From the IMG/VR virus record IMGVR_UViG_3300021520_000236, positions 1-52,712 of that record: DNA of 52,712 nt; one strand, written 5' to 3'. Position 1 is the stretch's first letter; every line of letters begins with the position of its first letter. Both the position numbers and the translations under genes were made by a program. Shown here piece by piece: positions 2,825 to 47,771 of the stretch. The notes under the pieces are model-generated. The model had not been told where the DNA came from. It saw nothing but the letters and a program-made list of their open reading frames with translations, and ran no database searches. Source of the stretch: a virus. Taxonomy: Duplodnaviria > Caudoviricetes.

Positions 2825-2881
2825 GAAAAATAATTGAAAATAATTGTTGACGGTGTTAACACCTTGTGACATATTCGCGAC
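2825..2881 (+). promoter_or_regulatory. Arm A early promoter (AT-rich UP element, TTGACG-17-TGnCATATT) with operator GGTGTTAACACC in the spacer; probably leaderless for ORF 2882
   Basis: -35 at 2847-2852, -10 at 2870-2875, ATG 7 nt later; perfect palindrome 2852-2863. Confidence 0.8.
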
Positions 2882-3094
2882 ATGCCACGGAAGAGAGCAG
2901 ACGGAAAAGTGCAGATCAACTCATGGGTTGATGGAGAACTTGCCGATGAAATCCGGGCAATTCAAAACCAACTCGGCATGTCGCATCAAAGCGACGCCGT
3001 TAAACATCTACTCGAAATCTCAATAAAGAAATATGGCAACTGCAACAATTCACCTATCAGCAAAAATCGAACCCGAGTTAAAAAAACAAATTGA
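2882..3094 (+). CDS. Ribbon-helix-helix regulator (repressor candidate)
   Basis: VQINSWV beta-ribbon followed by two helices (SHQSDAVKHLL). Confidence 0.65.
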   Translation: MPRKRADGKVQINSWVDGELADEIRAIQNQLGMSHQSDAVKHLLEISIKKYGNCNNSPISKNRTRVKKTN

Positions 3095-3224
3095 GACACT
3101 CGCACGTCTTGAAGACCGCTCCGTTTCTCACATGATCCGCCGTTTACTCCGTGAAGGTGTTAACACCTTCAAAACGGGTGTTAACACCAAATTGAATACC
3201 GCAAAGAAAGGATCGCGGAAATGA
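3033..3224 (+). CDS. CopG/Arc-like ribbon-helix-helix protein overlapping the previous gene by 62 nt
   Basis: IHLSAKIEPELKKQIETLARLEDRSVSHMIRRLLRE. Confidence 0.8.
   Translation: MATATIHLSAKIEPELKKQIETLARLEDRSVSHMIRRLLREGVNTFKTGVNTKLNTAKKGSRK
3152..3188. promoter_or_regulatory. Two further GGTGTTAACACC operator copies (3156-3167, 3177-3188), 21 bp apart, inside the RHH coding sequence
   Basis: 20-bp perfect palindrome TGAAGGTGTTAACACCTTCA at 3152-3171 and a 12-bp copy downstream. Confidence 0.8.
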
Positions 3225-3790
3225 ACTCCCTCACGATCCGCGAAGACATGACCGTTGATTCCGTCACGGTGGCAGAGCAGTGCGGGATCGAGCACCGGGC
3301 CGCGTTGCAGTTGCTCAAAACTCACGGTCCCAAACTGCAATCCAAGTTTGGCCCAATCGCATTTGAAATGCGGAAGGGTTCCCCGCTCGCCCACGGTGGA
3401 TTTGCGAAATCAACCCGCATTGCCCACCTGACAGAAGATCAGGCAACCGCGTTCATCACGCTATTCCAGAACACGGAAAAGGTCGTTGATTTCAAGTTTG
3501 CGCTGGTCGCCGCGTTCTCCGATGCCAAGCGCCGGTTGCGGAACTCGCCGATGACCGACGAGCAGATCAGCAACTGGGCTGTCAGCAAGTTTTTGAAAAA
3601 TGCCCGCCCAGCTTGCGAATATGGCGCGAGGACCAAAGACGGACGGGTGCGGGACAAGTTCCGCAAGCCGACCTATACGGCAACAGGGAACAAAACGAGT
3701 GCCGCTTTGGAAGTCGCCTCGGCGCTCATGCTTCTCGACCAGTATCTGCCGGGGTTTCAACTCCTGCCTCAACTCGGGGACGGCCAATGA
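3221..3790 (+). CDS. Rha-family phage regulatory / antirepressor protein
   Basis: DS..VAE..GIEH and LTEDQATAFITL..NTEKVVDFKFALV.AF pattern. Confidence 0.8.
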   Translation: MNSLTIREDMTVDSVTVAEQCGIEHRAALQLLKTHGPKLQSKFGPIAFEMRKGSPLAHGGFAKSTRIAHLTEDQATAFITLFQNTEKVVDFKFALVAAFSDAKRRLRNSPMTDEQISNWAVSKFLKNARPACEYGARTKDGRVRDKFRKPTYTATGNKTSAALEVASALMLLDQYLPGFQLLPQLGDGQ

Positions 3791-4023
3791 GACTATCCGC
3801 CCGCAGCTACGCGAAGCAGATCGGCGTCCACCCGGAGACGGTGCAGAGCTGGTGCCGCAACTCGATGCTCCCGGACAAGGACCGCAACAAGGCGCTCCCT
3901 CCCGTCGTCGCCCGCCGGATCGGCTCCCGCTGGCAGATCGCCGTCGAGAAGACCGAACTCGCCATGAGCCTCATCTGCGGGAACCCGGCCGAGCGCGGGC
4001 TCGCCAAGCGCGGGGCGATCTAG
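3787..4023 (+). CDS. Winged-HTH excisionase-like protein
   Basis: LSARSYAKQIGVHPETVQSWC...RRIGSRWQI; ATGA overlap with the previous gene. Confidence 0.7.
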   Translation: MRLSARSYAKQIGVHPETVQSWCRNSMLPDKDRNKALPPVVARRIGSRWQIAVEKTELAMSLICGNPAERGLAKRGAI

Positions 4024-4049
4024 GCCGCGCAAAACGTGAAACCTATTCT

Positions 4050-4199
4050 ATGAACAGACCTACCCGCCAGTCCGTGAGAACGACCGACGCCCCACCCGCG
4101 CCGGTTCCATTCCGAAGCACAAACCAAGCCCTGCATGACTTTTTCGTCAAGCGCGGCCTAGTCAACCCGCATCCGTGGAGGAAGGCCAAACAGAAATGA
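4050..4199 (+). CDS. Small hypothetical phage protein
   Basis: ATG 4050, stop overlaps next start. Confidence 0.45.
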   Translation: MNRPTRQSVRTTDAPPAPVPFRSTNQALHDFFVKRGLVNPHPWRKAKQK

Positions 4200-4360
4200 G
4201 CGCCGAAACTAAATGCGCGGCCTTGATCGCGCTTCAACTCGACTTGAGGAACTCCGCAAAGTTCCACCGGGAGCACAAGGAGCACCGTGATTTCTGGATG
4301 AAAATCATCCGGAGAGATGTTGCGGCAATCAAGGAACTCAAAGGAACTCCGTGCAAATGA
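4196..4360 (+). CDS. Small hypothetical phage protein
   Basis: ATGA-coupled on both sides. Confidence 0.55.
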   Translation: MSAETKCAALIALQLDLRNSAKFHREHKEHRDFWMKIIRRDVAAIKELKGTPCK

Positions 4361-4578
4361 GCGCCTATAACCTACCGCGCTGCGTCGTTTTGCTCGCCGC
4401 AGTTTTCGGAACCCGCCGCGCCTACGAATGGGCGATGGAAGTCCTGCCGCTCGCAAGGGCCGCAGAGAACATGGACCGGGACGACACTCACGACGAGGCA
4501 TACCGGAAGGAAGCCAGGGACGCACGCCGCCGGTTCGATGACATGCGCGACGGTGGAATCTCAACCGAGGAAGACTAA
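4357..4578 (+). CDS. Hypothetical protein, paralogue of 46058-46300
   Basis: Shared LP.CVVLLAAVF.TR.AY.WA, RDDTHD and DMRDGGIS. Confidence 0.8.
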   Translation: MSAYNLPRCVVLLAAVFGTRRAYEWAMEVLPLARAAENMDRDDTHDEAYRKEARDARRRFDDMRDGGISTEED

Positions 4579-4748
4579 TGGACGCCGACGACAAGAAATT
4601 CATCGGCCTATTGATCGCCGTTTGCCTCATCACGGTTTTCGTGTGCGGGCTGGCCGTCAACAAACTGGAACGGGAAAACGCGCGGCTGCATGCGGCTGTT
4701 GACGCTTCCACGGTCCCGCCGTCAACCAACTACGTCCGCACACGATGA
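4578..4748 (+). CDS. Small TM protein (56 aa, below ORF-track cutoff), paralogue of 45730-45894
   Basis: Translated by hand; ends RENARLHAAVDASTVPPSTNYVRTR. Confidence 0.75.
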   Translation: MDADDKKFIGLLIAVCLITVFVCGLAVNKLERENARLHAAVDASTVPPSTNYVRTR

Positions 4749-4954
4749 TCCCCATCTTCATTCTATCAGGCACTTTGTTTGCCGCCGGGATCGGCGCGGT
4801 GACATACGCACTCTGCAAGGACGCCTACCAGACCGGCTACCGCGAGGGACACCAGCGCGGGACGTTCGACGCCTGCAAGCAGCAGGTCGATACGGAGAAA
4901 TTCTTCCGAGACATCGACTCAGCCAGCAAGACACAATTTCCGCACAGAAACTAA
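4745..4954 (+). CDS. Small TM protein, paralogue of 45527-45733
   Basis: Shared KDAY..GYR.G..RGT.DAC.QQV.TEKFFRDI.SASKT.FPH. Confidence 0.8.
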   Translation: MIPIFILSGTLFAAGIGAVTYALCKDAYQTGYREGHQRGTFDACKQQVDTEKFFRDIDSASKTQFPHRN

Positions 4955-4967: not shown

Positions 4968-5885
4968 ATGAAAATAACACAAGGAAAAATCGCACGCGCA
5001 CAGCGCGTTGTCATCTACGGCGTCGAGAGCGTCGGAAAGACAACCCTGGCCGCTAACTCTCCACGGCCAATCTTCCTCGATGTGGAAGGCGGGACCAACC
5101 ATCTGGACGTTCCTCGCGCCGACATCGGATCGTGGCAGGAACTCACCGACGCCGTGGCCGAATGCCACCGGCTCGATTACTCAACCGTCGTCATCGACAG
5201 CATCGACTGGGCCGAGCGGCTCTGCATCGAGCAGTTCTTGAAGGACGCAAAAAAAGAGTCCATCGAATCCATTCCCTACGGCAAGGGATGGGTGCAGGTC
5301 GCCGAGCGCATGAGCCGGTTTCTCACCAGCCTGGACGGTCTCATCGAGGCCGGAAAGAACGTGATCCTGATCGGCCATTCTCAGGTTAAGCGCGTCGAGC
5401 CGCCCGACCTCATGTCCGCGTATGACCGCTACGAGCTGAAGCTCGCGAAACAGACCGCGCCGCTCGTCAAGGAGTGGGCGGATGAACTGTGGTTCGCGCA
5501 GTTCAAAACAAAGCTCATCGAGAGCGACAACGGAAAGACAAAGGCTACCGGCGGGAAGATCCGCGTGCTTCTCACGACTCATTCTGCGGCTTTCGACGCC
5601 AAGACAAGGAGCGGGTTGGAAGAGGAGCTTCCTATGGAGTGGGCCAGCGTCTCGCGCATATTCGCCGGGAAGCGCAGCAACCCGCTCCCCAAGTCGATAT
5701 TTGAGGAGCAGATCGGAGAGCACGAAGCCGATGTGAACGCATTCCTGACGGCACGGGAGGTCATCCGCTCCGGGCAGACATGGCGCGATGCGAAGCCCGA
5801 CTATCTCGCCCGCATCGGACAGCGCACTGAGCAGTTCCTTCGCACCGTTTCAGAGTGGCTCAGAAGCCGGCAGGAGGCCGCATGA
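4968..5885 (+). CDS. AAA_24 (Sak4-like) ATPase / single-strand annealing protein
   Basis: YGVESVGKTT, VVIDSIDWAE, YGKG, KEWAD, FDAKTR. Confidence 0.9.
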   Translation: MKITQGKIARAQRVVIYGVESVGKTTLAANSPRPIFLDVEGGTNHLDVPRADIGSWQELTDAVAECHRLDYSTVVIDSIDWAERLCIEQFLKDAKKESIESIPYGKGWVQVAERMSRFLTSLDGLIEAGKNVILIGHSQVKRVEPPDLMSAYDRYELKLAKQTAPLVKEWADELWFAQFKTKLIESDNGKTKATGGKIRVLLTTHSAAFDAKTRSGLEEELPMEWASVSRIFAGKRSNPLPKSIFEEQIGEHEADVNAFLTAREVIRSGQTWRDAKPDYLARIGQRTEQFLRTVSEWLRSRQEAA

Positions 5886-6892
5886 AGGAACTCCGCGCTT
5901 CCAGCCTTCCAAAGCTCGCCGAGTGCCCATTGTTTGATGGGACATCCGGCGAGGCATCGGCAGCGGCCTCGCGCGGGACAAAACTCGACGTTGCATACCG
6001 TGAACGGCTGCATGGACTCAGCACGACTCTCGACACGCTGGAAGAGTCGGAAAAGGCCGCAGTCATCTGGGCTGTCGCCGAGTCCGAGACTCTCGCCAAC
6101 GGAAACTTTGTCGAAACACGCGAGGAATACCTCGCAATGGCCGTGCCTGGACTCTCGACAGTCGGGACCGCTGACGCGCTGTGCATCGGCGGATCGTGGC
6201 TCGCGGATCTGAAGACAGGACAAGTCCGCAACTACCGGGAACAGATGGCTGCTTATGCGCTCGCGTGCATGAACGACCATTTCACCGAAAGCTGGACGGC
6301 CCACGTTCTTTATTGTGACGCGGGAGTAAGGCGGTCCTACGATTTCACATACACGGACGCTCAGGCCATCGTCGCCGCCACCATCGCGGAGGCTACCAGC
6401 AAGGATGCCGAGCCTAACCCGTGCGAGTATTGCGGCTGGTGCGCCCGCAAGGACACTTGCAAGGCAATCGTCCGCCAGAACACGGAGGCTATCGCCATCG
6501 CCACAAGCGATCACAGCCTGACCAAGATCCGCGATCACATCCTTTCGACGCCAGAGAATGTCTGCGAGTTTGCACGCCAGTGGAAACAGGCCGAAAAGGA
6601 CATCGCGGAACCTATCCTTGAAAGGCTCAAGGAACTGGCCGCGCTCGATCAGGCTCCCGGATGGCGCTTAGTCCAGGTCACTGGCCGCGAATACGCCGAG
6701 ACTCCCGCCATCGCCGCTGTCGCCAACGAAACCAAGATCAGCGCCGAAAGCCTGATTCTCGCGATGGGCGGGAAGATGAGCGGAAAACAATTTCGCGAGT
6801 GGACATCGAATCTCGGTGTCGTGCTTGACGAGACGGCCATCAAGCGCGGGGAGCCGACAACCCAACTCCGCCAAGAAAAGAAAAAGAAATAA
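5882..6892 (+). CDS. PD-(D/E)XK Cas4-like exonuclease (DUF2800-like)
   Basis: N-terminal RASSL....ECP, GTAD, DLKTG, Q..AY and C-terminal C..C.WC.....C. Confidence 0.85.
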   Translation: MKELRASSLPKLAECPLFDGTSGEASAAASRGTKLDVAYRERLHGLSTTLDTLEESEKAAVIWAVAESETLANGNFVETREEYLAMAVPGLSTVGTADALCIGGSWLADLKTGQVRNYREQMAAYALACMNDHFTESWTAHVLYCDAGVRRSYDFTYTDAQAIVAATIAEATSKDAEPNPCEYCGWCARKDTCKAIVRQNTEAIAIATSDHSLTKIRDHILSTPENVCEFARQWKQAEKDIAEPILERLKELAALDQAPGWRLVQVTGREYAETPAIAAVANETKISAESLILAMGGKMSGKQFREWTSNLGVVLDETAIKRGEPTTQLRQEKKKK

Positions 6893-6893
6893 T

Positions 6894-7376
6894 ATGCCAA
6901 GCTACAAACAATCAGAACCCAAAAGCGGAGCCTTCTTCGTCCCTCCCGGCACATACGCCGTCGAGATCGTCAAGGCTATCGAAAAGACCAGCCAGAACGG
7001 AAACCCGATGATCTCGCTCACCTGCGAAATCCAACTCGGGAACGGGAAGATCGGGCCAACCGTCTGGGACAATCTCGTCTTTACTCCCAAGGCGGCTTGG
7101 AAGATCGACCAGGTTCTCGCCAGCATCGGACGCGCTGTCGTCCCAGGAGAGGAGACGAACGTCGAGGCCGACCAGCTCGTCGGCGCAGAAGGGGTCGCAA
7201 TCATCGGAGAGGAACCGGGAGCAAAGAACCCGTCCGACAAGTTCAACTGCATCGAGCGCTGGATCTTCGGTGACGAGCGCAACGAGTGGCTGAGGACGAA
7301 CCGCGCCAAGGCCATGCAGGCCAAGGTGGCTTCGCCGGTCAAGGTGGACAAGGAAGATCAGGATATTCCGTTTTAG
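6894..7376 (+). CDS. DUF669-like ssDNA-binding protein
   Basis: VPPGTY.VEI, SQNGNPMI, acidic DIPF tail. Confidence 0.8.
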   Translation: MPSYKQSEPKSGAFFVPPGTYAVEIVKAIEKTSQNGNPMISLTCEIQLGNGKIGPTVWDNLVFTPKAAWKIDQVLASIGRAVVPGEETNVEADQLVGAEGVAIIGEEPGAKNPSDKFNCIERWIFGDERNEWLRTNRAKAMQAKVASPVKVDKEDQDIPF

Positions 7377-7575: not shown

Positions 7576-8430
7576 ATGAAACCAGAAACTAAATCAGTAA
7601 AACTCGCCGACATCACAATGGACGGCGGAACACAAACCCGCGCCGCGCTAAACGAGGATGCTGTGTCTAGCTATTCGGAAGCGATGCAAGCCGCCGCTAA
7701 ATTCCCGCCCATCGTCCTGTTTTATGACGGATCAAACTATTGGCTCGCGGACGGGTTCCACCGTTGCCACGCAGCGAAGGCCGCAGGGTTCCTCGACATA
7801 CTGGCCACTGTGAACTTTGGAACGCGCAGAGAGGCCGTGAAGTTTGCTATCCAAGCCAACCATGTCGGCAGCGTTCTCCGCACAAACAAGGACAAGCGTA
7901 AGTGCGTGGAGATCGCGCTTAAAGAATACCCCGACCTCTCCGACCGTGCGCTGGCGGACTGGTGCGGGGTGTCTGACATGACGGTCTCAAGGGTGAGAAA
8001 AGATAGGTGCATAAATGTTGCACCTGAGACGCCCAAAGAACTCCAAGACCGGCTTGAGAGGCAAATGGACGCAAAGGAAATGCTTCCAGCTCATCCCGAA
8101 CACCCGGAGCACGAAGAATGGAAGAAATCCGAGGCATACCAAACAGAGCACGAATCCCGATGGAAAGAGCAGTCCGAAAAGCGGACCCGCACAGGCAAGG
8201 ACGGGAAGCAATACCCCGCTCCAGTCGTAGAACCAATCTCGCCGGAAGAACCGGCAAAGAAACGAGGCAGCTATGAAGGATGGGTAGAGTTTCGCGACAT
8301 CTGCGATCAGATCGCAGTCGAATGCGATTCTCTAAACTCCATCATTGTTGACCATGCACACAAAACCGCCGCAAGAGATTTAGCGGCGTCTACTGCAAAG
8401 AGGCTAATAAAAATCTCAAACAACCAATAA
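7576..8430 (+). CDS. ParB/Srx-domain protein
   Basis: FPPIVLF..G..YWLADGFHR..A; HTH-like SDRALADWCGVS. Confidence 0.85.
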   Translation: MKPETKSVKLADITMDGGTQTRAALNEDAVSSYSEAMQAAAKFPPIVLFYDGSNYWLADGFHRCHAAKAAGFLDILATVNFGTRREAVKFAIQANHVGSVLRTNKDKRKCVEIALKEYPDLSDRALADWCGVSDMTVSRVRKDRCINVAPETPKELQDRLERQMDAKEMLPAHPEHPEHEEWKKSEAYQTEHESRWKEQSEKRTRTGKDGKQYPAPVVEPISPEEPAKKRGSYEGWVEFRDICDQIAVECDSLNSIIVDHAHKTAARDLAASTAKRLIKISNNQ

Positions 8431-8437
8431 AAAATAT

Positions 8438-9304
8438 ATGTTCAAACTAACCAATCAAATCCAAGTCAGAAACGTCACGCCGGAAGAGGCTAGGGAACTT
8501 CTTGCAATCAACAACTTCCCTGGACAAAGGAGGCTTCACCCTCTCAAGGCAAGGCACTATGCAGACCTCATGCACTCTCGCAGAATGCGGCCTGTTGAGT
8601 TTTCGATTATGACGCTGCCCTGTGGGTCTAAATATCTCGCAAACGGCCAGCACTGTGCCCAGGCAATCATTCTGCATGGGAAGCCTTTCCCCGCTACAGT
8701 GTCCCACTGGAAGTGTGAAACGAATGAAGATGCCTGGCACCTGTTCGCGAGCTTTGATGTCCACGGCACCAGAACCGAGCAGCATATTATGTGTGCGGCG
8801 CGTGGGTTTTTCAACGAAGGGCTTCAAGAAATGCCGTTACGGACACTTCAGTGTTGCGGGTCTGCATTGCATATTCTTGGGGACGGGGATTCTCCGCGAT
8901 TCAGCGGACAGCCTACGCATAAAGAGAGAAAGCCCGAGCTTGTGATCGAGAACGAAGATGCCGTTATTTGGGTTCACCAGTTCTCTGATGAGCGGCACTT
9001 GATGAAAGTCCCTGTTGTTGCGGCTATGATCGCAACCTGGCGGGCTAATGCGGAAGAAGCGCAGTCTTTTTGGTGGGCGCTGAAAACCGGGGACAACATT
9101 CGTGGTTCTACGAGAACGCTCCGTGACCAGTTGCTGAAAAACGAAGTGGGCGGAAGCGCCACGGGAGGCGGGCCGGATAGAGCGAAAGCGATCTACTCCG
9201 TGTGCGTAGCATTCTGGAATACTTTCATGCGGGGAGAAGAACGCCGATCGGTGAAGCTTGCAACAATGAAGGAAGTCCCGGCTCCAGACAAATTCCGCAA
9301 ATGA
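8438..9304 (+). CDS. Divergent ParB-like phage protein
   Basis: VTPEEARELL, N....R, NGQH (DGQHR-like) motif. Confidence 0.6.
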   Translation: MFKLTNQIQVRNVTPEEARELLAINNFPGQRRLHPLKARHYADLMHSRRMRPVEFSIMTLPCGSKYLANGQHCAQAIILHGKPFPATVSHWKCETNEDAWHLFASFDVHGTRTEQHIMCAARGFFNEGLQEMPLRTLQCCGSALHILGDGDSPRFSGQPTHKERKPELVIENEDAVIWVHQFSDERHLMKVPVVAAMIATWRANAEEAQSFWWALKTGDNIRGSTRTLRDQLLKNEVGGSATGGGPDRAKAIYSVCVAFWNTFMRGEERRSVKLATMKEVPAPDKFRK

Positions 9305-9582
9305 AAACCCACTCCGAGCTTATAGCCTACCAAGCAACCCTTGACCCTATCCGTGATTATTTCCTGATTATGGAGAGGCCGGTGGGGAGCTTCACCTGGA
9401 CATTTGCAAAGATTGCCACGGATGAGAAGTCCGCAAATCAAAAGGCAATCGACATCGCGATGACAGGAACCTGCACACGCATCATCCGGGGGCAACTCCC
9501 CCGGATGCCGGATGAGACGTTCAATTACGCCACCCTCGCGGATGGCGACACACAATTCAATATCACGCCTAGCGATCCATGA
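9301..9582 (+). CDS. Hypothetical protein
   Basis: ATGA-coupled to both neighbours. Confidence 0.55.
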   Translation: MKTHSELIAYQATLDPIRDYFLIMERPVGSFTWTFAKIATDEKSANQKAIDIAMTGTCTRIIRGQLPRMPDETFNYATLADGDTQFNITPSDP

Positions 9583-9977
9583 TCCTCTCCCCCGACTTCT
9601 TCCACCACTGGAAAACAGTGACGTTGCAGGCCGAGCACGGGACGGAAGGCGTGCTGGCGCTAATCCGGCTATGGGCGCACTGCTACGAGCGCCGCGCTGA
9701 GACGTTCAGGGCCACGCCAGACATCCTAAAAGCGATAACCGGGCTCAACGGCAAGGTTGACGCCTTCGAGGGCACCTTGACGGCTTTGCGGCTCATTGAG
9801 AGAGACGGAGAAAATATCACCATGCGCGGCTGGAAGGATGTCCACAAAAAGCTGTTTTCTTCGTCTCAAAACGGACGGTTTGGAGGCCGCCCAAAACAGA
9901 GCGAAAAACAGGCCGAAAAAGAGCGTCAGGAAAAGCCGAAAAAGGACAAGAATCCGGCCAAGAATTTCAGACTCTGA
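9579..9977 (+). CDS. Phage replication initiator, N-terminal domain only
   Basis: PDFFHHWKT..L, LIRLWAHC, NG..GGRPK; directly upstream of iterons and DnaB. Confidence 0.65.
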   Translation: MILSPDFFHHWKTVTLQAEHGTEGVLALIRLWAHCYERRAETFRATPDILKAITGLNGKVDAFEGTLTALRLIERDGENITMRGWKDVHKKLFSSSQNGRFGGRPKQSEKQAEKERQEKPKKDKNPAKNFRL

Positions 9978-9988
9978 ACAGAGTAAAA

Positions 9989-10096
9989 TAACCTAACCAT
10001 AACCTAATGTATAACCTAAATGTAACCTACACTCTTGAGATAGAAGGAAGGATACTTCCTTCGGAAGTAGCGCTTTCGCGCTGCGCCAAGAGGCGC
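9989..10096. repeat. Probable replication origin: four TAACCTA iterons followed by three small hairpins
   Basis: TAACCTA at 9989, 10000, 10012, 10023; hairpins TACTTCC-TTC-GGAAGTA, AGCGC...GCGCT, TGCGCC...GGCGCA. Confidence 0.7.
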
Positions 10097-10128
10097 ATCG
10101 CAAGCGCCGACCACTCCAAAAACCACCG

Positions 10129-38736: not shown

Positions 38737-38838
38737 GTCGAACCAAGTCGTCCAGCGAACCCCTACCCGCCAGACGGTTGTTTTTGATTTTCGGGATTCT
38801 CGCCAGCGGGCAGGGGCCGCTGACGACCGACGTTCGAC
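38737..38838 (+). repeat. attC-like site S8
   Basis: GTCGAAC...GTCGTCCAGCGAACCCCTACCCGC / GCGGGCAGGGGCCGCTGACGAC...GTTCGAC. Confidence 0.9.
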
Positions 38839-39260
38839 AAAATATGGGATGCGATTTCGTTGACCTCACCGCAGGAAAGGCAGTCCTCGTGGCATCCTGC
38901 GTAGGATTCCGTTTTGATCTTTTCCATCGCGGCGCGAAACTGGCCGTTTCGTTTCCAGTGCCGGTCGCGTTGTGCGAGAGTTGCGATCAGGTCCGCTTCG
39001 AGCTTGTCCCCGGCATTGATGAGCCTCGCGTTCTCGGCGGCGAGGTTGTCGCGCTCTTTCCTGTCCTCATCGCGAATAATTTCCCCATCGCGCCACATGT
39101 TCAACTCGGTTTCGATGGAGGCGTTCTCGGATTCAACCTTGTAGTATTTCGCAACGATGTCTGCGGCGGCGAGCAATGCGGGGACCTTCCCTGCCAGCGT
39201 TCCTTTTTTGAGCGTGGCGGCTAGCTCGCGCAGGGTGGTTTCGGTTTGGTTGGTGGTCAT
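38763..39260 (-). CDS. Coiled-coil hypothetical protein ending inside S8
   Basis: Heptad pattern; C-terminus NVGRQRPLPAG is attC-encoded. Confidence 0.7.
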   Translation of the reverse strand: MTTNQTETTLRELAATLKKGTLAGKVPALLAAADIVAKYYKVESENASIETELNMWRDGEIIRDEDRKERDNLAAENARLINAGDKLEADLIATLAQRDRHWKRNGQFRAAMEKIKTESYAGCHEDCLSCGEVNEIASHILSNVGRQRPLPAGENPENQKQPSGG

Positions 39261-39320
39261 ACGTTCAAAAAGTCCCGCCGCGCTGGCCGTGAGGGGTTGT
39301 GATATTCAATGTCATAAATG

Positions 39321-40841
39321 CTATAATAACTTTGCTGGTTCCGGTTTCGTGTAGATCGGGTTGTATCTGTTGAGCCTTCCCCGGATTATCACCCTGTCTC
39401 TTTCGGCCTTTGCGAGAGCATCGTAGGCGACGGACTTCCCGCATCCGGTGAGGTCTTTGATCTTGTAAAGGAGTTCTGTTCTCGTGATCTGATCCTCGAA
39501 AAGATCGGCAACGTCTTGGCTTGAAAGTGCGGCCTTTTTATTCCCTGGCGCTTTCTTTTCGAGCCCTACGGACTGCCGGAACTCCTCCGGGTCGAAGTCG
39601 GGGTTAATCCGGTAGATCCCAACTTCCTCATCAAGCATCACGCCCATCTCCGGGAACTGTGCGCCGTTGTTGTTCTTCCCGCATGCCATTACCATCAGGC
39701 GCGGGTTGTCCGGGTCTTGAGGTGCCAGGTTCACCTGTGCACGGGTCCATGCGTAGAGAGCTTTTGAGTTGCGCCCGAAAGATGATTTGTCCCATCCTAC
39801 GGCCTTTGCGGCTCCGAGTTTTCCGGTAGCCGAGTGATGCACGACGACAGGGACACGCTGCGGGTTCCCCTTCTTGACCGCCCGAGAGAGAGCTGTAACA
39901 ACCTGCTTCATGTCACGGTCGTTGTTCAGTTCCAGACTGGTGAAGGTATTGAGCGGATCGAAACAAACGAAGTGCGGGTCGTGGTCGGCAATCGCTTGCT
40001 CGATATGCCGGATCTCGTCAGTCTCCAAGTCGAGGAAGGTATCTTCGTCCTTCTCTACCGTGTGGATGACAAAGCAGTCGTCGATAAGAAGCGTATCCTC
40101 TTTTTGAAATCCCAACCCTCTCACCATCTTGGTGATGTCAGTTTTTAGGCGGCGGTTTGAGTTCTCCGTTTGGAATACGAGCCACTTCTTCCCGCGAGCG
40201 TGTGTTTCAATCCCGAGGAACGGGCGCCCGGTTATCATGCAAAAAGCTAGCTGCATGAGGAGTCTGCTTTTCCCGATCCCTCCGGGGCCGAGGATCGTTA
40301 CCGGCTGGCTGGCGGCGATGATCCTATCCCCGAAATAATTGTCGGACTCGTCGAAGTCCATATTCACGAGTTCTGTAATCGTGCGGATGGACAGGCGGGA
40401 CTTCTTGCTTTTTACCGTGTGGTTGAGCTGCTTGAAGTTCAGCGCGATCTCTGTCGGGTCTTCGCCCTTCTTCACCGCTACTTGGATTTGCTGTGAGACG
40501 GTCGAGTTGTGCGCGTTGACCTTGTGCTTCCAGAGGGTTTCGCAATATCCCTCGAAGACTGCCGGGACCGAAGACTGCCCCTCGTTTATCAGGGCATCCG
40601 CGATGGCCTGGTTCACCTCCGGGGAGCCGCCAGCAAAGAAGCTCGCGATGGAAAGGTAATCGAATGTCTCCCCGTTCTCGTGCCGCCTTGCAAGTTCTGC
40701 GAATACCTGCCGGTAATGGTCCGCGACGAACGATTCGGTAGTGACCTCGTATTTGTCAACGATTCCCCAGCGGTCTTTCCCTGACAGGAGCCCGGCGAGG
40801 ATGCCGAGTTCGGCGGCTTGTGTCGGCCAGTTGTTCTTCAT
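39321..40841 (-). CDS. RepA-like SF4 helicase (AAA_25) with DnaB-like N-terminal domain
   Basis: GPGGIGKS, QTEN, FDPL, VVHH, R.S, KNN. Confidence 0.85.
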   Translation of the reverse strand: MKNNWPTQAAELGILAGLLSGKDRWGIVDKYEVTTESFVADHYRQVFAELARRHENGETFDYLSIASFFAGGSPEVNQAIADALINEGQSSVPAVFEGYCETLWKHKVNAHNSTVSQQIQVAVKKGEDPTEIALNFKQLNHTVKSKKSRLSIRTITELVNMDFDESDNYFGDRIIAASQPVTILGPGGIGKSRLLMQLAFCMITGRPFLGIETHARGKKWLVFQTENSNRRLKTDITKMVRGLGFQKEDTLLIDDCFVIHTVEKDEDTFLDLETDEIRHIEQAIADHDPHFVCFDPLNTFTSLELNNDRDMKQVVTALSRAVKKGNPQRVPVVVHHSATGKLGAAKAVGWDKSSFGRNSKALYAWTRAQVNLAPQDPDNPRLMVMACGKNNNGAQFPEMGVMLDEEVGIYRINPDFDPEEFRQSVGLEKKAPGNKKAALSSQDVADLFEDQITRTELLYKIKDLTGCGKSVAYDALAKAERDRVIIRGRLNRYNPIYTKPEPAKLL

Positions 40842-41354: not shown

Positions 41355-41816
41355 TCAGGCGTTGCAGAACTTGTCACGCGCATAGGCGGCAACGGCGAGA
41401 GCGGCCCAAACGTGCGACTTGATACCGTAAGTCGGTCCCGGTTCTTTCTTCGTTCCTTGCGGTCCAAGGCGGTCAATAAGTGCCTGCCGTATATTGGCGT
41501 CTTTCGCCCGCATGCTGCCGCAGAGATGAATCTTGATGTCCTTTCGGAAGATCAGTTCAAACCCTGAGTCAAGCGACCTCGCTTCCATGAACCGGCCAAT
41601 CCAAAGGCATGTTTCAAAAGTCTCGCGTCCTACCGGCATTCCATATGAGGCGATCATCTCGCAAGCGACGAGTGCCGGCCACGGTTTGAACAGTCTGCCA
41701 GATAGCCAGTCGCGCACGGTCTGGTTTTCCTCAAATCCGTGCGATGCAATTCCGTCATTGTCAAGAATGACGAACGCGCTATGCGTCGTGCCTGGGTCAA
41801 TAGCCAAGATAGTCAT
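41355..41816 (-). CDS. RuvC-like Holliday junction resolvase
   Basis: ILAIDPGTTHS, EMIASYGMPVG, IGRF, AKDANIRQALIDR. Confidence 0.85.
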   Translation of the reverse strand: MTILAIDPGTTHSAFVILDNDGIASHGFEENQTVRDWLSGRLFKPWPALVACEMIASYGMPVGRETFETCLWIGRFMEARSLDSGFELIFRKDIKIHLCGSMRAKDANIRQALIDRLGPQGTKKEPGPTYGIKSHVWAALAVAAYARDKFCNA

Positions 41817-42476: not shown

Positions 42477-42911
42477 TTAGATTCCTACTTTTTGTTTGTG
42501 TGCGATTTCACGGTGATGCTTGAAGCACATCCAGCGAACCGCCAATGGTTTTGAATAGTCGAGGTGGTGAGCCTGTGAGTTGGCTTCTCCGCAAACTTCA
42601 CAAGGCATCCGGGTAATCCGTCCGTCTCTGATTGCGTTTGATACAGCCGATAGCGCCTTGCATTTCTGCGGGTTTTGAATCCGGCGCTTTTTGTTGTATT
42701 CGCGCAGTTGCGCTTTTCTGTGTTCTGACTGAAACCTTGCCTTTTCGTATGCTACTACCTTCGCTCGCCCTTCTTGAGACAAGTATCTGGCCGTCACGTC
42801 CAACTTTGTGCATTCCTTGCACTTGTTTAAGTGGCCGTCTGCCATCTGCGGATGGGGATAGAACTCAGAGAGTTCTTTTTCCCCACCGCATTTGAAGCAT
42901 TTCTTCGACAT
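42477..42911 (-). CDS. HNH-type endonuclease with N-terminal zinc finger
   Basis: C.KC...K...EFY...CKEC; CEVCG...AHH.DYSKPL.V.W.C..HH. Confidence 0.85.
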   Translation of the reverse strand: MSKKCFKCGGEKELSEFYPHPQMADGHLNKCKECTKLDVTARYLSQEGRAKVVAYEKARFQSEHRKAQLREYNKKRRIQNPQKCKALSAVSNAIRDGRITRMPCEVCGEANSQAHHLDYSKPLAVRWMCFKHHREIAHKQKVGI

Positions 42912-42946: not shown

Positions 42947-43489
42947 TCAGTTAAAAGGTATGTCGTCTTGTCCTTCGGGGGCCGCGTTCGCCGGACCGTC
43001 AGCCTTCGCCGCTGGTGCCGCCGTGCCGCCGTTGACCGTCTTGGCGATAGCCTTGGCCTTGCGCCCCATCTTTGAGATGAGAGAGGCAACTTTAGCCCCG
43101 TCCATCTCCTTGCCGCAGCCGCCCGCGTTGTTCAGCCATTTGGCTTTGATGCGCGTCTCGCCGTTGTAGGTTTCGGACTCGGCCACGATCTCGCATTCCG
43201 AACCGGCAAAAGAGAACGTGCCGTTGTGCAGCGCGTCCATGTCGCCGTTCCATTGCGGGAACGTCTTGCAGAGGTTTTCGATGGTCCGGTCAAAGGCGGC
43301 GTCCGAAAGCCATCCTGTATAGACGATCTCCTTGCCTTGCTGGTCCCCGGCCTCTGTGACTTTGCACGGGATGCGGATGAATGGCGTTTGCTTCTCGCCA
43401 GCCTCGCCAAACCACCCGTTGCCGGGTTGCTTGACGACGCAAAGGTAGCTGCCGGCCTTGTTGACGTATTTGTTGTTTTCTTCGCTCAT
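42947..43489 (-). CDS. ssDNA-binding protein (DUF669-like)
   Basis: G.Y, TP.I, KWLN, DDIPF tail. Confidence 0.75.
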   Translation of the reverse strand: MSEENNKYVNKAGSYLCVVKQPGNGWFGEAGEKQTPFIRIPCKVTEAGDQQGKEIVYTGWLSDAAFDRTIENLCKTFPQWNGDMDALHNGTFSFAGSECEIVAESETYNGETRIKAKWLNNAGGCGKEMDGAKVASLISKMGRKAKAIAKTVNGGTAAPAAKADGPANAAPEGQDDIPFN

Positions 43490-43492: not shown

Positions 43493-44386
43493 TTATTTGG
43501 TTTTTGGTTGGAGTGATTGGAGTTTCGCGATCCCGCCTTTCACGCGGTCGGGCGGGAGCGAAGTGACATCCACCTTTGCCCACTTCTCGCGATCGGCTGC
43601 GGGCATGTCGGCGGTTTTTAGGAGGGCGAGGTATTGCTCGCGGAGTTTGTCTGGCCGGTTGGCTTGAACTGCGGCGTCGAAGTCTTCCCACGAGAGCGGG
43701 AGAGTTTCTGGGAGTCCCAAGCGGTTCTTGGCGTCCCATCCTGGGCTCCATTGCGTGTGGATGATCCGGTCGCCTCCGATCACCTTTTCGCGCTGTTCGC
43801 CCTTCTCCTTTGTCTTGAAAACCTCATAGACCGCAAACAAGCACGCATCCGGCCACTCGCGGAGAATCCCGGTGAATCCGCGATGTCCCTTGCTTTCATA
43901 ACGATCCCAAGTCGTTCCGTCCGGGGAGTTGAAAGGCTTGATATGGACGTGCGAGAGGAGAACGATTCCCATTTTCTGCTGCTGGCGCAGGTGGTCGAGT
44001 TTGGAAAGAAGCAACACAAGCTCTTGCTCCGCGACTTTGTAGCCCTTCCCGTAGCCATAATCCTCGATGCTAGCCTTGCTGTCGCGGGTGCAGACAAACG
44101 AATGGATTGACCGTTCCAGCCAGTCCATCGTGTCAATCACAAGCGTCTTGTATTCCGAACCGTTAGCTGCCAGTTCGTCAACGATAGCCGTGACATCCGC
44201 AAACGTCTCAGGTGTGACGCGGGCAACGTGATCCAATCCGGTCAAGCCGTCCTCTTGGCTAATGAAGAGAGGGAATGGGGCGGATGCTCCAAACGTGCTT
44301 TTCCCGATTCCTTCCGGACCTGCGAGTGACACGCGGGGAGGCAGGCTCTCTCCACCGCGTTTGATCTTACTGAGGATTGTGCTCAT
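43493..44386 (-). CDS. AAA_24 (Sak4-like) ATPase, paralogue of 4968-5885
   Basis: GPEGIGKST, LVIDTMDWLE, GYGKGY, EWPD, WDAKNR. Confidence 0.9.
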   Translation of the reverse strand: MSTILSKIKRGGESLPPRVSLAGPEGIGKSTFGASAPFPLFISQEDGLTGLDHVARVTPETFADVTAIVDELAANGSEYKTLVIDTMDWLERSIHSFVCTRDSKASIEDYGYGKGYKVAEQELVLLLSKLDHLRQQQKMGIVLLSHVHIKPFNSPDGTTWDRYESKGHRGFTGILREWPDACLFAVYEVFKTKEKGEQREKVIGGDRIIHTQWSPGWDAKNRLGLPETLPLSWEDFDAAVQANRPDKLREQYLALLKTADMPAADREKWAKVDVTSLPPDRVKGGIAKLQSLQPKTK

Positions 44387-44389: not shown

Positions 44390-45319
44390 TTATTTTGTGA
44401 TGAATGTTTTCAAGTAGGCTTCGCATCCGGCGTGGAATGACGATCCAAGCCGCAATGCTTCCGATGTCTCCGCGATCTTCTCTGTCGGGGTTTCGTATCG
44501 AAGTTGGTGATACCTTGCGCACTTACGCAGGGCCGAAAGTCGGGAGTTGGTGAGAAAGTCCTTCCCCTGTTCGGTGATAAGCAGCTCCGCGTGTTTGGTG
44601 ACTTTCTCTCCGTAACGGATGCCGTCCACGGTCGCGCGGCCAGCGCAGAGGTCGAAGTATTCGCATTGCCCGTAGGCCGTGCATGCGGACGGGTTGCGCG
44701 GCCAGAGGTTATGCTGGCGGGAGTAAAGGATCTGCTTGGAAAGCTCCCAGGCGTCCTTGCAGTAATCAACCAGGTCGGAGTCTGAGCGGGGGATTTCCTT
44801 CTGGACAAAGAAGGCGGCGGGATTCTCGCGGATGTTTTCCAAGCAACGGTCAAAGAACTCCTGCGGAGTCTCCGGGTTCGGTTTGTCTTTCCGAAGCGGT
44901 TTGATTCCCGGCTTCTTGGCGACATCATAGACCACGCTGCGGACATCCTGACCGCCTTGCATCACGGCAAGAACATATTTGCTGATCTGTCCATCCATCG
45001 CGAGACGCGCCCAATAATCGCTTTCGGGCTCGACTGACTCGCTGGTTGTCTTGTGTTCCAAGACTTTGATTGCACCGGATGTCTTGTGCTTTAGAACGCC
45101 GTCGATCTTCCCGGCTTCAACGAATGTCTTGGACGGGCTTTCGGTTTCCGGGTTGAGGAGCGGGAATGTAAATTCAAGCTCCACGCTGATAACCTCGTGC
45201 TCCGCGAGCACCGGCCCGATGTTTTCCACCCATCCGACAAACATGGCGTGCGCCTTGGCGGTCGAGTGGTCGTATTCTGCTTTTTGGAAAGTTTCCTCTC
45301 CTGGGTATGGTCTTGTCAT
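44390..45319 (-). CDS. PD-(D/E)XK Cas4/AddB-like nuclease, apparently circularly permuted
   Basis: VE, GKID, EHKT, Q...Y, C.....C.Y..LC, then LTNSRL....KC.R...LRY...ALRLGSSFH at the C-terminus. Confidence 0.85.
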   Translation of the reverse strand: MTRPYPGEETFQKAEYDHSTAKAHAMFVGWVENIGPVLAEHEVISVELEFTFPLLNPETESPSKTFVEAGKIDGVLKHKTSGAIKVLEHKTTSESVEPESDYWARLAMDGQISKYVLAVMQGGQDVRSVVYDVAKKPGIKPLRKDKPNPETPQEFFDRCLENIRENPAAFFVQKEIPRSDSDLVDYCKDAWELSKQILYSRQHNLWPRNPSACTAYGQCEYFDLCAGRATVDGIRYGEKVTKHAELLITEQGKDFLTNSRLSALRKCARYHQLRYETPTEKIAETSEALRLGSSFHAGCEAYLKTFITK

Positions 45320-45323
45320 AAAG

Positions 45324-45530
45324 TTAGAGCTGTCCCCGGCGTTGTAGCCGAAGGATAAATTCGGAAGATTCGATGGCGTCTTGCAATTTGGCCTTGGCGG
45401 TCGCGTATTGGTTCCCGCAACCGATAAGTGCTCCCTGTGTCTTGGAAGGGAGAGATCCCCAGCAAGGTTCGCAGAACTGCTTGGTTTCCTTCTTGGCCCC
45501 TCCACACGAGCATTTCCCAGTCGTGTTCAT
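45324..45530 (-). CDS. Small zinc-finger protein
   Basis: CSC........FC..CW..LP. Confidence 0.65.
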   Translation of the reverse strand: MNTTGKCSCGGAKKETKQFCEPCWGSLPSKTQGALIGCGNQYATAKAKLQDAIESSEFILRLQRRGQL

Positions 45531-45733
45531 TTGTGGGGAAAGCTGGTTTTGCTGGCGGATTCGATGTCGCGGAAAAACTTCTCCGTCTCGACTTGCTGGC
45601 GGCAGGCGTCGTATGTCCCGCGCTTGACCCCGTGCCGGTAGCCTTCGTTGTAGGCGTCTTTAACGAGCGCGTTGACTACTGCCGTGATCCCGACGATGGA
45701 AAGCAGGCCGGATAGGATGAAAATGGCAATCAT
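45527..45733 (-). CDS. Small TM protein, paralogue of 4745-4954
   Basis: MIAIFILSG...QQVETEKFFRDIESASKTSFPHK. Confidence 0.8.
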   Translation of the reverse strand: MIAIFILSGLLSIVGITAVVNALVKDAYNEGYRHGVKRGTYDACRQQVETEKFFRDIESASKTSFPHK

Positions 45734-45894
45734 CGTGTGCGGACGTTGAGCGTGGACGGCGGGACTTCGCTGGCGATTGTCGCGGCGTGGAGTCGGTCCT
45801 GTTCGCGGGATAACTTTTGCTGGTATTGGCCGATCAGGAGAACGGTCCCGAGGGTAAGCCAAATCAAGAACAAGATGGCGTTGTGCTTGTTCAT
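45730..45894 (-). CDS. Small TM protein (54 aa), paralogue of 4578-4748
   Basis: Hand-translated; ends REQDRLHAATIASEVPPSTLNVRTR. Confidence 0.75.
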   Translation of the reverse strand: MNKHNAILFLIWLTLGTVLLIGQYQQKLSREQDRLHAATIASEVPPSTLNVRTR

Positions 45895-46061
45895 TTGCAG
45901 AACATCTCCTGGTAGTGGGCGAAAAGGTCGGCCCAGGTGACTTCGATCCGCCTGCGGTTGTCGGGATCACCGAGTCTCCACGCGAGGGCGAGGGTCTGGA
46001 CGAACGATCCGCCATGCTCCTCCATCGCGCGGACGGCCTTGATTTTTTCCTCGATTTTCAT
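45891..46061 (-). CDS. Small phage protein (56 aa)
   Basis: Hand-translated MKIEEK...HGGSFVQTLALAW..GDPDN..RI; ATGA-coupled both sides. Confidence 0.7.
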   Translation of the reverse strand: MKIEEKIKAVRAMEEHGGSFVQTLALAWRLGDPDNRRRIEVTWADLFAHYQEMFCK

Positions 46062-46300
46062 TCTTCCTCCCCGCTGATTCCACCGTCTCGCATGTCGTTA
46101 AACCGGCGCTTGGCGTTTGTGGCTTCTTCGCGGTATTCCTGATCGTGTGTGTCGTCGCGTTCTTTGTCGCGTTCGCTGATAAGGTTCTCGGCGTTGCGGG
46201 CGATGGGGAGTGTGACTTGCGCCCAATCGTAGGCTTTGCGTGTCATAAAGACCGCCGCGAGGAGAACGACGCAGTTCGGTAGGAGGTAGTTGTTTTTCAC
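46058..46300 (-). CDS. Hypothetical protein, paralogue of 4357-4578
   Basis: LPNCVVLLAAVF.TR, RDDTHD, DMRDGGIS. Confidence 0.8.
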   Translation of the reverse strand: MKNNYLLPNCVVLLAAVFMTRKAYDWAQVTLPIARNAENLISERDKERDDTHDQEYREEATNAKRRFNDMRDGGISGEEE

Positions 46301-46536
46301 TTCCCGGCCTCCATTGCTTTGGCCCGCGCCCGTTTCAGCCGGCGAGACATGACACTCGTGAACGTGTTGGCGTCCGGGTGGACGTTCTGGCCTTTCTCAA
46401 TTAGAAAGGCGTGGATCGCCCGGAACTTGTAGCCTTTCGCCCGCATAACTTCGACGGCGCCAAGAATGGTATCGGTAGGGTATCGGCCAGCCGGGGGTAG
46501 AGCGTTTGCCGCCTCGATGAGTTCGGCGGCGCTCAT
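46297..46536 (-). CDS. Hypothetical DNA-binding protein
   Basis: MRAKGY.FRAI..FL...G. Confidence 0.6.
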   Translation of the reverse strand: MSAAELIEAANALPPAGRYPTDTILGAVEVMRAKGYKFRAIHAFLIEKGQNVHPDANTFTSVMSRRLKRARAKAMEAGK

Positions 46537-47195
46537 TGTTTCAAACGGGCGTGCCCGTATTTGGTTTGAACGTGGCCGGATTTCTTGGCTTCGCTCAGGT
46601 GGTAGTAGAATGTCGTCTTGCTCACATTCAACATCCCGGAAAGCTCAACGGTGTTCTGCCATTCCGTTGTGAGGATTTCCAAGACGTTGAAACCTGATTT
46701 TGCCGTTTTGGTAGCCTTGCGGGTTGGCGCTTTGTTCTTCCAGACGAGAGAACGTGCCGTTGTTGCCGCCGCATCCGCGCCGATGTCCATTGACCGGAGC
46801 CAAGCGAAGATGTCCGCGAAGTCGCGGGCAACCGGGTATCGGTCGAAGTCGAGGGAGGATTGGAGGTAGAAGCCGTTCTGCCGGATCGCCGGGAGGACTT
46901 CCGATGTCACCCACAGCCGGAAGGCGACCGCCTGCGGCTTCCGGGATTTGAAGATCAGCGCGTAGAGGCCGGATTCGCTGATGAGGTTGTAGGATTGTGC
47001 GCCATTTCCGGCCCGACCCTCAGGATTACTGAGGGTCATCTTTTCGAAATCTTCAAGAGAGCGGATAGCCTCAGTGGTGTTCCCGATTTCCAGCACCCGG
47101 CAGACATCCGCCGCAACGAACCAGGGCGAGTTCTCCCGGTCAACAACCCGGACGGGGTTTTCTTTGAAGTCGAATACTTGGAGGCTCATTTCCAT
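46533..47195 (-). CDS. BRO-N domain antirepressor (start 47195 or 47189)
   Basis: PWFVAADVC.VL, ISESGLYALIFKSRKP.A..F..WVT.EVLP.IR. Confidence 0.92.
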   Translation of the reverse strand: MEMSLQVFDFKENPVRVVDRENSPWFVAADVCRVLEIGNTTEAIRSLEDFEKMTLSNPEGRAGNGAQSYNLISESGLYALIFKSRKPQAVAFRLWVTSEVLPAIRQNGFYLQSSLDFDRYPVARDFADIFAWLRSMDIGADAAATTARSLVWKNKAPTRKATKTAKSGFNVLEILTTEWQNTVELSGMLNVSKTTFYYHLSEAKKSGHVQTKYGHARLKQ

Positions 47196-47356
47196 GCCCC
47201 TTTCTCCGCGAGAAACTCTTCGAGCACCTGAGTTACCACGGATGACCGTGTGCGGCGTTTCTGTTGCGCGAATTTTTCGAGGGCCATCAAAAGATCTGGT
47301 TTAAGGGATATTCCCGCGCTCTTGGCTCTCATCTCTTTTGGAAGTGGACGGCTCAT
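47186..47356 (-). CDS. Third ribbon-helix-helix protein (56 aa, below ORF-track cutoff)
   Basis: Hand-translated AGISLKPDLLMALEKFAQQKRRTRSSVVTQVLEEFL; ATGA-coupled. Confidence 0.75.
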   Translation of the reverse strand: MSRPLPKEMRAKSAGISLKPDLLMALEKFAQQKRRTRSSVVTQVLEEFLAEKGAWK

Positions 47357-47541
47357 TTTGAGGATGTCTGAGGTTCACTTAACCCTTGAAGTAAAAAAAT
47401 AACGTGCTGGTTGACAGAACGGCAGCTTGCGCGAGCTTCCCGGACCAACTTCGTTTTGATGTCACGGGGTATCATCAAGGATAGTGGCAAGGCGCTTGCC
47501 CGTTTCGGCTGCTTTTTTTGTGGCGGCGAGGATTGCTTCAT
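47353..47541 (-). CDS. Arc-like ribbon-helix-helix protein, overlapping the upstream gene by 80 nt
   Basis: LSLMIPRDIKTKL..EA....RSVN..VI.LL. Confidence 0.8.
   Translation of the reverse strand: MKQSSPPQKKQPKRASALPLSLMIPRDIKTKLVREARASCRSVNQHVIFLLQGLSEPQTSSK
47371..47385. promoter_or_regulatory. Second copy of arm B operator AGGTTCACTTAACCC inside the RHH coding sequence
   Basis: Identical 15-mer at 47730-47744. Confidence 0.75.
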
Positions 47542-47707
47542 AGTCTTTTACTGAGATTGGAATGTTTGCGGTTTTTGCTGCGAGAATTTCAATCACCAGT
47601 TCAGACAATGAAATTCCCTGAGACTTCGCCATACGAACAAGGCGAACCTTGATCGTGCGGGGGAGAGAGAGGGAGAATGGCTCCTTGTCTGGTGAATGCT
47701 GGTTCAT
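47462..47707 (-). CDS. Ribbon-helix-helix regulator (repressor candidate)
   Basis: FSLSLPRTIKVRL..MAKSQGISLSELV..IL. Confidence 0.8.
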   Translation of the reverse strand: MNQHSPDKEPFSLSLPRTIKVRLVRMAKSQGISLSELVIEILAAKTANIPISVKDYEAILAATKKAAETGKRLATILDDTP

Positions 47708-47771
47708 TGAAACAAGTGCAATATAAACAAGGTTCACTTAACCCGTCAACAATTATTTTGAATTATTTTTC
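47708..47771 (-). promoter_or_regulatory. Arm B early promoter (UP element, TTGACG-18-TATATT) with operator in the spacer
   Basis: 47743-47771 is a 28/29 inverted copy of 2825-2853. Confidence 0.8.

Follow-up and report, generated by a model that had tools for sequence, protein, structure and literature searches.

Poly-lysogeny with adjacent, tandem or nested prophages, together with recombination between prophages, is outlined for Escherichia coli O157 and related strains (PMC8112680). As far as that account portrays it, this situation is, along with defective prophage remnants, the nearest known phenomenon to the locus described here, IMG/VR record IMGVR_UViG_3300021520_000236 (Duplodnaviria; Caudoviricetes). 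The window that we analyzed is the whole entry of 52,712 bp, classed there as a provirus, and it holds two convergent early/replication arms, arm A on the + strand and arm B on the − strand, with one virion module. Its likeness to the O157 case, in the aspects that the account sets out, lies in two related lambdoid-type prophages in one locus, in mosaic modules, and in one incomplete element that is perhaps dependent. Here, however, the elements stand tail-to-tail in opposite orientation at two different tRNA genes, with one virion module and no copy of an attachment site (att) between them, and their linkage on one molecule is unproven. We tentatively favor a real composite, in which a complete-looking prophage at tRNA-Asn is non-homologously fused, tail-to-tail, to an integrase-less and virion-less early arm of a heteroimmune relative at tRNA-Gly, although we rate this interpretation as slightly short of probable.

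Two immunity systems of temperate phages serve as further points of reference. In immI of phage P22, the ribbon-helix-helix (RHH) repressors Mnt and Arc control the antirepressor ant. At OL/OR of phage lambda, two divergent early promoters share operators for one repressor.

Two related early arms and one virion module

A preliminary description of this DNA, made from the letters alone, had called the two arms homologous, and an all-against-all BLASTP of the window bore this out for part of their length. Both arms start with an inverted block (2825-2853 and 47743-47771) that is identical at 28 of 29 positions and that blastn extends to 33/35 over 2825-2859 and 47771-47738. RHH/Arc-like genes and one antirepressor-type gene follow in each arm. 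The regulatory cassette of arm A (2882-3790, +; Pfam) consists of two overlapping small genes, the second matching RHH_1 (3.4e-7), and a Rha-type gene at 3221-3790 (Phage_pRha, 3.2e-10). That of arm B (46533-47737, −; Pfam and PHROGs) has two small genes, one of them Arc-like (phrog_582, 4.4e-4), and then a Bro-N gene at 46533-47195 (Pfam, 6.5e-23). Behind the cassettes, three small paralogous genes occur in the same order in arm A (4357-4954, +) and arm B (45527-46300, −), with 64% identity over 76 amino acids (aa), 47% over 59 aa and 68% over 82 aa (67-83% at the nucleotide level). An AAA_24 ATPase is likewise present in both arms, with 35% identity over 248 aa; in arm A it lies with a DUF2800/PD-(D/E)XK nuclease and a DUF669 gene at 4968-7376 (+; Pfam), and in arm B at 43493-44386 (−; Pfam).

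The other shared genes are parallel in function, without detectable sequence similarity. Each arm has a PD-(D/E)XK family match (44390-45505, −, by Pfam in arm B), and the nuclease and AAA_24 are in swapped order between the arms. Each also carries a Holliday-junction resolvase of phrog_1770 (11403-11885 in arm A; 41355-41816, −, in arm B), endonuclease VII/HNH-type genes (42477-42911, −, in arm B), and a helicase, which is DnaB in arm A (10129-11406) and AAA_25, RepA-like, in arm B (39321-40841, −; Pfam 9.7e-25). The remainder of arm A (7576-14581, +; Pfam and PHROGs) thus comprises ParB-like, DnaB helicase, resolvase, endonuclease VII-like and endonuclease genes. Pairwise similarity was not significant for the nuclease pair, for the resolvase pair, or for DUF669 against a 180-aa gene of arm B (42947-43489, −). 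The latter gene had been described as SSB-like, but it has no family match. In short, homology at the sequence level extends no further than the promoter block, some 1 kb of small genes and AAA_24.

The single virion module (14557-35309, +; Pfam and PHROGs) encodes a small terminase subunit (TerS), a large subunit of the gpA type (TerL), a lambda-type portal, a protease, a decoration protein, a major head protein and a tail terminator. Downstream lie a tail-fibre-like gene of 833 aa (30023-32524) and distal genes without annotation. The earlier statement of one head/tail/lysis set was sound as regards packaging and head genes, of which there is one set where two complete adjacent prophages would bring two, but the presumed lysis genes at 32.5-35.3 kb have no PHROG match. 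Arm A forms part of a complete-looking prophage that reads tRNA-Asn, integrase gene (int1), early promoter, RHH/antirepressor cassette, recombination and DnaB replication genes, one lambda-type packaging/head module, tail and distal genes.

Promoter block and operators

In arm A, the block (2825-2853, +) consists of two AAAATAATTG repeats followed by the −35 element TTGACG, and we therefore regard it as the upstream and −35 portion of a promoter. A perfect palindrome, GGTGTTAACACC, is located at 2852 between the −35 and −10 elements and twice more about 300 bp downstream, at 3156 and 3177, just before the Rha gene (operator set 2852-3188, +); the window contains no copy other than these three. 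Arm B (block and operators, 47370-47771, −) carries its own operator sequence, AGGTTCACTTAACCC, at the corresponding position (47730) and again 359 bp downstream (47371), and no further copy exists in the window. In a prophage of the Verrucomicrobiota genome G415 (contig C214), which has the same block (27/29), a third palindrome, GGTGTATAACCACC, occupies the two corresponding positions. This prophage is the sole match to the block among 122 fetched loci (1.65 Mb), and the exact block pattern gave 0 matches in IMG/VR. In both arms, the putative operators comprise one within the promoter spacer and a further one or two some 300-360 bp downstream, ahead of the antirepressor gene.

The interpretation of the shared block as a promoter thus stands for its upstream/−35 part, whereas the block is not an operator, the operators being arm-specific. 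To judge from its sequence, it is part of an early promoter common to the phage group and not a putative repressor site. We read the three palindromes as one regulatory design with three predicted immunity specificities, those of arm A, arm B and the G415 prophage. Because each arm has its own palindromic operators, the arms appear to be heteroimmune variants of a common design, which is what one would expect of two phages, and the difference between the operators argues against one repressor governing both. The silencing of each arm would depend on an RHH repressor of its own that acts on that arm's palindromic operators, and the two arms would be switched independently.

The layout behind each block, with a promoter overlapped by palindromic putative operators, small RHH genes and an antirepressor-type gene (Rha or Bro-N), resembles that of P22 immI. 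It differs in that the cassette heads a whole early/replication operon, and the sequence link to P22 consists of the RHH_1 and Arc-like PHROG matches only. With lambda OL/OR the locus has in common two early promoters bearing a near-identical block. However, this block lies upstream of −35, the operators differ between the two promoters, and the arms have no repressor gene between them and converge in the prophage. An open reading frame (ORF) divergent from the arm-A promoter (2340-2786, −) was considered as a CI-like or classic helix-turn-helix repressor and dropped; it has no Pfam or PHROG match, and its translation seems, by eye, membrane-anchored.

Flanking tRNA genes, integrases and attachment sites

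Both flanking tRNA genes point their 3' ends inward, as had been noticed before (ARAGORN). The tRNA-Asn(GTT) gene (1096-1168, +) has its 3' end toward int1, a tyrosine integrase gene at 1279-2343 (+; Pfam Phage_integrase, 6.5e-12; PF00589 in six frames at 1858-2304), and this adjoining position is the classical arrangement. It is 96% identical to the host tRNA-Asn in G415, where the flanking DNA differs. On the other side, the host tRNA-Gly(GCC) gene with 58 nt of native 5' flank occupies 49346-49477 (−; ARAGORN and host comparison). These 132 nt match the tRNA-Gly locus of the nearest host genome (G001, contig C52) at 93%, the tRNA alone at 99%, and the host similarity breaks off precisely where the tRNA has its 3' end. 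It follows that arm B forms the tRNA-proximal part of an insertion into host tRNA-Gly, and the second element to which it would belong would have been inserted at the tRNA-Gly 3' end.

Matches to PF00589 in six frames were confined to int1 and to int3, a gene for a 410-aa tyrosine integrase at 49532-50764, just past tRNA-Gly, that was absent from the preliminary description; none was found between 2.3 and 49.3 kb. Arm B indeed lacks an integrase on its side of tRNA-Gly. We searched for att copies with exact 11-mers and then with local alignments and shuffles. No copy of at least 11 nt of either tRNA end exists anywhere in the window, the local alignments yielded only chance-level repeats, and an att duplicate near 35.3-35.5 kb, whose presence had been proposed as a sign of two simply adjacent elements, was not found above chance. 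Weak direct repeats near the junction, at 1069-1086 against 35304-35322 (17/19) and at 1163-1182 against 35140-35160, score near chance. Across the window, no direct match of the MoxR/tRNA-Asn spacer is better than the former, which falls exactly at the convergence point of the two arms, but we do not rely on it, as chance alone yields inverted matches with higher scores. Another direct match, of 9 nt (AACGAGATT), at 1087-1095 and 49463-49471 (about 0.04 expected) was set aside as well.

The window is thus neither a single element bounded by a duplicated att core nor a pair of complete adjacent prophages, each with an integrase, attL and attR, and arm B has neither the integrase nor the att pair of a satellite. 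As neither tRNA end is duplicated in the window, the composite would be unable to excise as a unit; the "non-excisable dual-replicon hybrid" of the preliminary description is unproven.

Related prophages carry one early arm

Portal matches were found in 48 of 401 genomes of the host order. The closest are those of G026 (contig C34, 62%) and G148 (contig C100, 56%, the same phage as IMG/VR locus L003), and these Verrucomicrobiota prophages resemble the window in portal (56-62%) and major capsid protein (38-40%). In contrast to the window, G026 and G148 possess only one early arm each, which precedes the TerS, TerL, portal and major capsid protein genes and runs in the same direction as they do. 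G148 carries PD-(D/E)XK, AAA_24, 180-aa and helicase genes of the arm-B type at 44-54% identity. Another locus with one early arm (L001) has a 72% identical helicase that is followed by TerL on one strand, and in G236 (contig C79) arm-A-type genes and the arm-B 180-aa gene lie within one operon. The G415 locus (L117, 5867-8452), which also has a single early arm, reads tRNA-Ser, integrase, a 62% homologue of ORF 49030-49245, promoter block and early genes; its integrase is 31% identical to int1. It thus shares the promoter block and operator layout with the window but differs in that the integrase separates the tRNA from the homologue of ORF 49030-49245. In arm B this ORF lies only 100 nt from tRNA-Gly, so that the integrase position of G415 is empty.

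More distant searches returned little. Megablast of both window halves against cultured phages and tblastn of the arm-B helicase against phages gave no match, and tblastn of TerL against phages gave only matches of at most 26% identity, the best being Verrucomicrobia phage P8625. Single-protein scans of IMG/VR with the helicase, ORF 38020-38730 and ORF 33945-34436 found no match, and the metagenome scan returned only the same 12-kb contig already seen in IMG/VR. A DNA search with 31.5-47.8 kb matched 13 of 102 family genomes, every piece being 290 nt or shorter.

The proposal that the arms derive from two phages, one at tRNA-Asn and one at tRNA-Gly, is supported by the arm-specific operators, the one arm per relative, the host match at tRNA-Gly, and the absence of a second att and of an arm-B integrase. 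Arms A and B would be the regions for immunity and early replication of two different but related temperate phages whose host is a freshwater member of the Verrucomicrobiota.

The junction, read depth and competing explanations

Public runs that carry the sequence are lake/freshwater metagenomes (14 rows, 8 studies), and four of these rows are marked as possible sources. We placed Logan contigs from four short-read runs (X1, X5, X6 and X7) on 30.5-50.5 kb. The arms converge at 35290-35309, where ORF 34923-35309 on the + strand shares 20 nt with ORF 35290-35511 on the − strand, and in the favored composite arm B would meet the end of the first prophage tail-to-tail here, at 35.29-35.31 kb. Contigs bridge 35.3 kb in X1 (31592-36482), X5 (31487-39293) and X6 (34960-36959), and two X7 contigs overlap at 35246-35268. 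Bridged in several samples, the junction is real DNA. The composite would have arisen by non-homologous deletion/fusion that removed the far ends of both elements.

Several observations weigh against this composite. Doubled coverage or a lack of spanning reads had been named beforehand as signs of a collapsed assembly; contigs do span 35.3 kb in several runs, but coverage is doubled over 31.5-39.3 kb (31487-39293, bounded by Logan contig breaks), at 33 against flanks of 15.8 and 17.2 in X1 and at 19.4 against 9.1 and 11.6 in X5. Contigs break at 31333/31592 and at 39293, past which reads enter non-window sequence. The double depth and the branch points at both ends place the segment in at least two genomic backgrounds, so that short reads cannot phase its left side with its right side; a physical link from arm A to the proximal stretch of arm B is unproven. 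The flanks differ in depth in X5 (9.1 left, 11.6 right), and in X6 and X7 the depths on the two sides part in opposite directions, a weak hint under patchy cover. No truncated gene or deletion scar was found at the junction. Neither tRNA-Asn nor anything else from the window follows the host MoxR gene in any of seven related host loci (0/7, with 0.3-10 kb downstream available), and the two tRNA loci are therefore not shown to be natural neighbours; the tRNA-Gly and MoxR contigs of G001 share no sequence. Protein scans of IMG/VR and metagenomes, the host-order genomes and the family-wide DNA search revealed no relative with two arms or a composite layout, and the silencing of each arm by its own repressor is a mechanism that we infer. 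A mis-phased or chimeric contig, which we consider the main rival although less likely than the composite, would account for much of this. A tRNA-Asn and a tRNA-Gly prophage would share a near-identical 7.8-kb mosaic segment at 31.5-39.3 kb, the assembler would have entered it from one prophage and left it into the other, and the missing att copies would lie outside the window. The multiplied depth, the branch points and the alternative continuations, non-window after 39293 and 39172, are all of the kind that mis-phasing leaves. Depth subtraction pairs the left flank with the alternative right (15.8 vs 15.9 in X1, 9.1 vs 7.8 in X5) and the right flank with the alternative left (17.2 vs 17.3 in X1, 11.6 vs 10.3 in X5), which slightly favors the crossed pairing; the divergence of left and right depths in X6 and X7 is in line with mis-phasing too. 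Inward tRNA genes without an att duplicate, and MoxR and tRNA-Gly sides that are not neighbours in relatives, would also be explained. However, the tail-to-tail junction sits inside the shared segment, so that both real genomes would keep the odd layout, which mis-phasing would duplicate and not remove. On the left, the alternative sequence still belongs to the same tail-fibre gene, as a diverged allele (32 nt of match, a 151-nt gap, then 24 mismatches). The X1 differences fall within the spread of the right-arm contigs (15.2-20.6), two of the four having depths of 15.2 and 15.8, compatible with linkage to a left flank of 15.8. Over about 46.5-49.2 kb, the depth in X6 and X7 is again that of the shared segment, one loose X7 end entering at 47208 under patchy cover, which suggests variants differing only in the arm-B replication cassette within a constant architecture. 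Finally, an 82,231-bp contig runs through the segment. Exact look-ups of 10 proteins all led to contigs of which this is the longest, as did that of the arm-B helicase; proteins of the shared segment were on 6-9 contigs, those of arm A and the structural module on 3-5 and those of arm B on 5-7, and close variants, whose arm-B proteins are 79-90% identical, occurred on contigs of 46.7-46.9 kb.

The mechanism originally put forward was homologous recombination of a tRNA-Asn prophage with a tRNA-Gly prophage within their structural modules, which would have left one hybrid virion module; we consider it improbable. It would fit the two-phage origin of the arms and a mosaic breakpoint inside the tail-fibre gene at 31.3-31.6 kb, but on topological grounds recombination between co-linear prophages in opposite orientation would invert the intervening DNA and keep both modules instead of deleting one, and we found no hybrid breakpoint that requires it. 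It would work only if the tRNA-Gly phage already had convergent late genes, which the relatives seen do not have; moreover, because the depth stays double past 35.3 kb as far as 39.3 kb, the contigs show no parental form that stops at the lysis end. Quite improbable, too, is a reading of arm B as a hitch-hiker or capsid-less satellite that replicates from a module of its own and borrows the single virion module of a helper prophage to which it is joined or adjacent. The size of arm B, about 12-14 kb, its intact look with immunity and replication genes of its own and no virion genes, and the constancy of its flanks around an apparently swapped replication cassette in X6 and X7 are in line with such an element, as is a low-depth contig joining 49141 to 37734 with 36 nt between. 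Against this stand the lack of an integrase and an att pair, the failure of family scans to recognize a packaging-redirection, small terminase or capsid-size gene in the distal ORFs, the occurrence of homologous arm-B-type modules as ordinary early arms of complete phages, and the depth of 2.2 and the position inside ORFs of the 49141-37734 joint. We find it very improbable that the window is a single phage whose two early arms diverge from a central integration region in the circle, like lambda pL/pR, with the block as common operator. Although blocks identical at 28/29 head both arms and a circular form would put the two promoters either side of int1, the operators differ and the block is upstream of −35, each end is a host-type tRNA, the two differing in identity and no fragment of them being duplicated, the recombination and replication sets are fully redundant, and the relatives are single-armed. 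In addition, the G415 integrase adjoins the homologue of ORF 49030-49245 on the same strand, an arrangement that the circularised window would not reproduce. It is, lastly, distinctly unlikely that the contig is correct and its layout both maintained and functional, with a virion-less and integrase-less arm that has its own RHH immunity permanently fused tail-to-tail and sharing the single virion module.

Further branch points or loose ends were observed in the double-depth segment at 34455 (X7), 36453-36482 and 37672-37701 (X1) and 39172 (X6), and indicate more than two mosaic variants in the lakes. The joint from 49141 to 37734 mentioned above is in an X5 contig of depth 2.2, runs via 36 unrelated letters and has both ends inside ORFs; it could stem from a relative with rearranged DNA, from a tandem or circle-like form, or from a contig artefact. 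The loose ends seen at 45499 and 47743 were rejected as alternative junctions, being arm-A sequence placed onto short inverted repeats.

Remaining gene content and host flanks

Arm B is tightly packed with ORFs, none of those scanned having a structural family match. Its distal part (35290-39260, −) holds small ORFs, one phrog_419 member and one lipoprotein-like ORF, and upstream of its promoter (47795-49245, −) lie a lipoprotein-like ORF, DUF6804 and the 71-aa ORF 49030-49245. Lipoprotein-like ORFs, recognized by eye from a signal peptide and a cysteine (in 47795-48726 and 35854-36072), and the DUF6804 membrane protein thus occupy both extremities of the arm and are possibly prophage-expressed surface or exclusion genes. 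Like defective prophage remnants, arm B has no integrase, no second att and no virion genes, and it lacks what excision and virion formation need. No decay or pseudogene was detected on the ORF map, where most distal ORFs have no homologues for judging gene extent, and, in a difference from such remnants, population variants seem to swap its replication cassette.

In arm A, a 324-aa endonuclease VII-like ORF (12857-13831) lies in the stretch of lowest GC content (about 0.49), just before the small terminase region, and is possibly a homing-type insertion. A tRNA-Met(CAT) gene at 17416-17493 lies inside the packaging module, with TerL on one side and the portal gene on the other, and is therefore phage-borne.

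The left flank of the window carries the host MoxR-type AAA ATPase gene (40-1014, +; Pfam AAA_3, 4.7e-63), which is 97% identical at the aa and 87.6% at the nucleotide level to that of a freshwater Verrucomicrobiota metagenome-assembled genome (L006, the same as G001), the similarity ending at the stop codon. On the 5' side of tRNA-Gly, a third mobile element (49532-52712, +) comprises int3, a 168-aa ORF, a REP_ORF2-G2P replication protein gene and an open-ended ORF. Its GC content is 0.38-0.48, against 0.52-0.60 in the prophage, and it may be an integrated inovirus-like or rolling-circle replication element. The CheckV completeness estimate for the record is 48, despite a full-looking prophage and extra DNA.

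Implications

If the composite is real, the locus would be a natural case of two heteroimmune relatives sharing one locus and a single virion module, and prophage interference, helper use and module exchange would be open to study in an uncultured freshwater Verrucomicrobiota host. Should the layout turn out to be maintained, the design would amount to a "fused satellite" or a two-headed temperate phage, in which lakes swap the arm-B replication cassette while the architecture is kept. If instead the contig is mis-phased, it serves as a warning that provirus records crossing mosaic segments of co-occurring prophages can mimic exotic architectures. Whichever of these holds, the three predicted operator variants behind one conserved block would offer a compact model, open to testing, for the diversification of immunity specificity among these phages.

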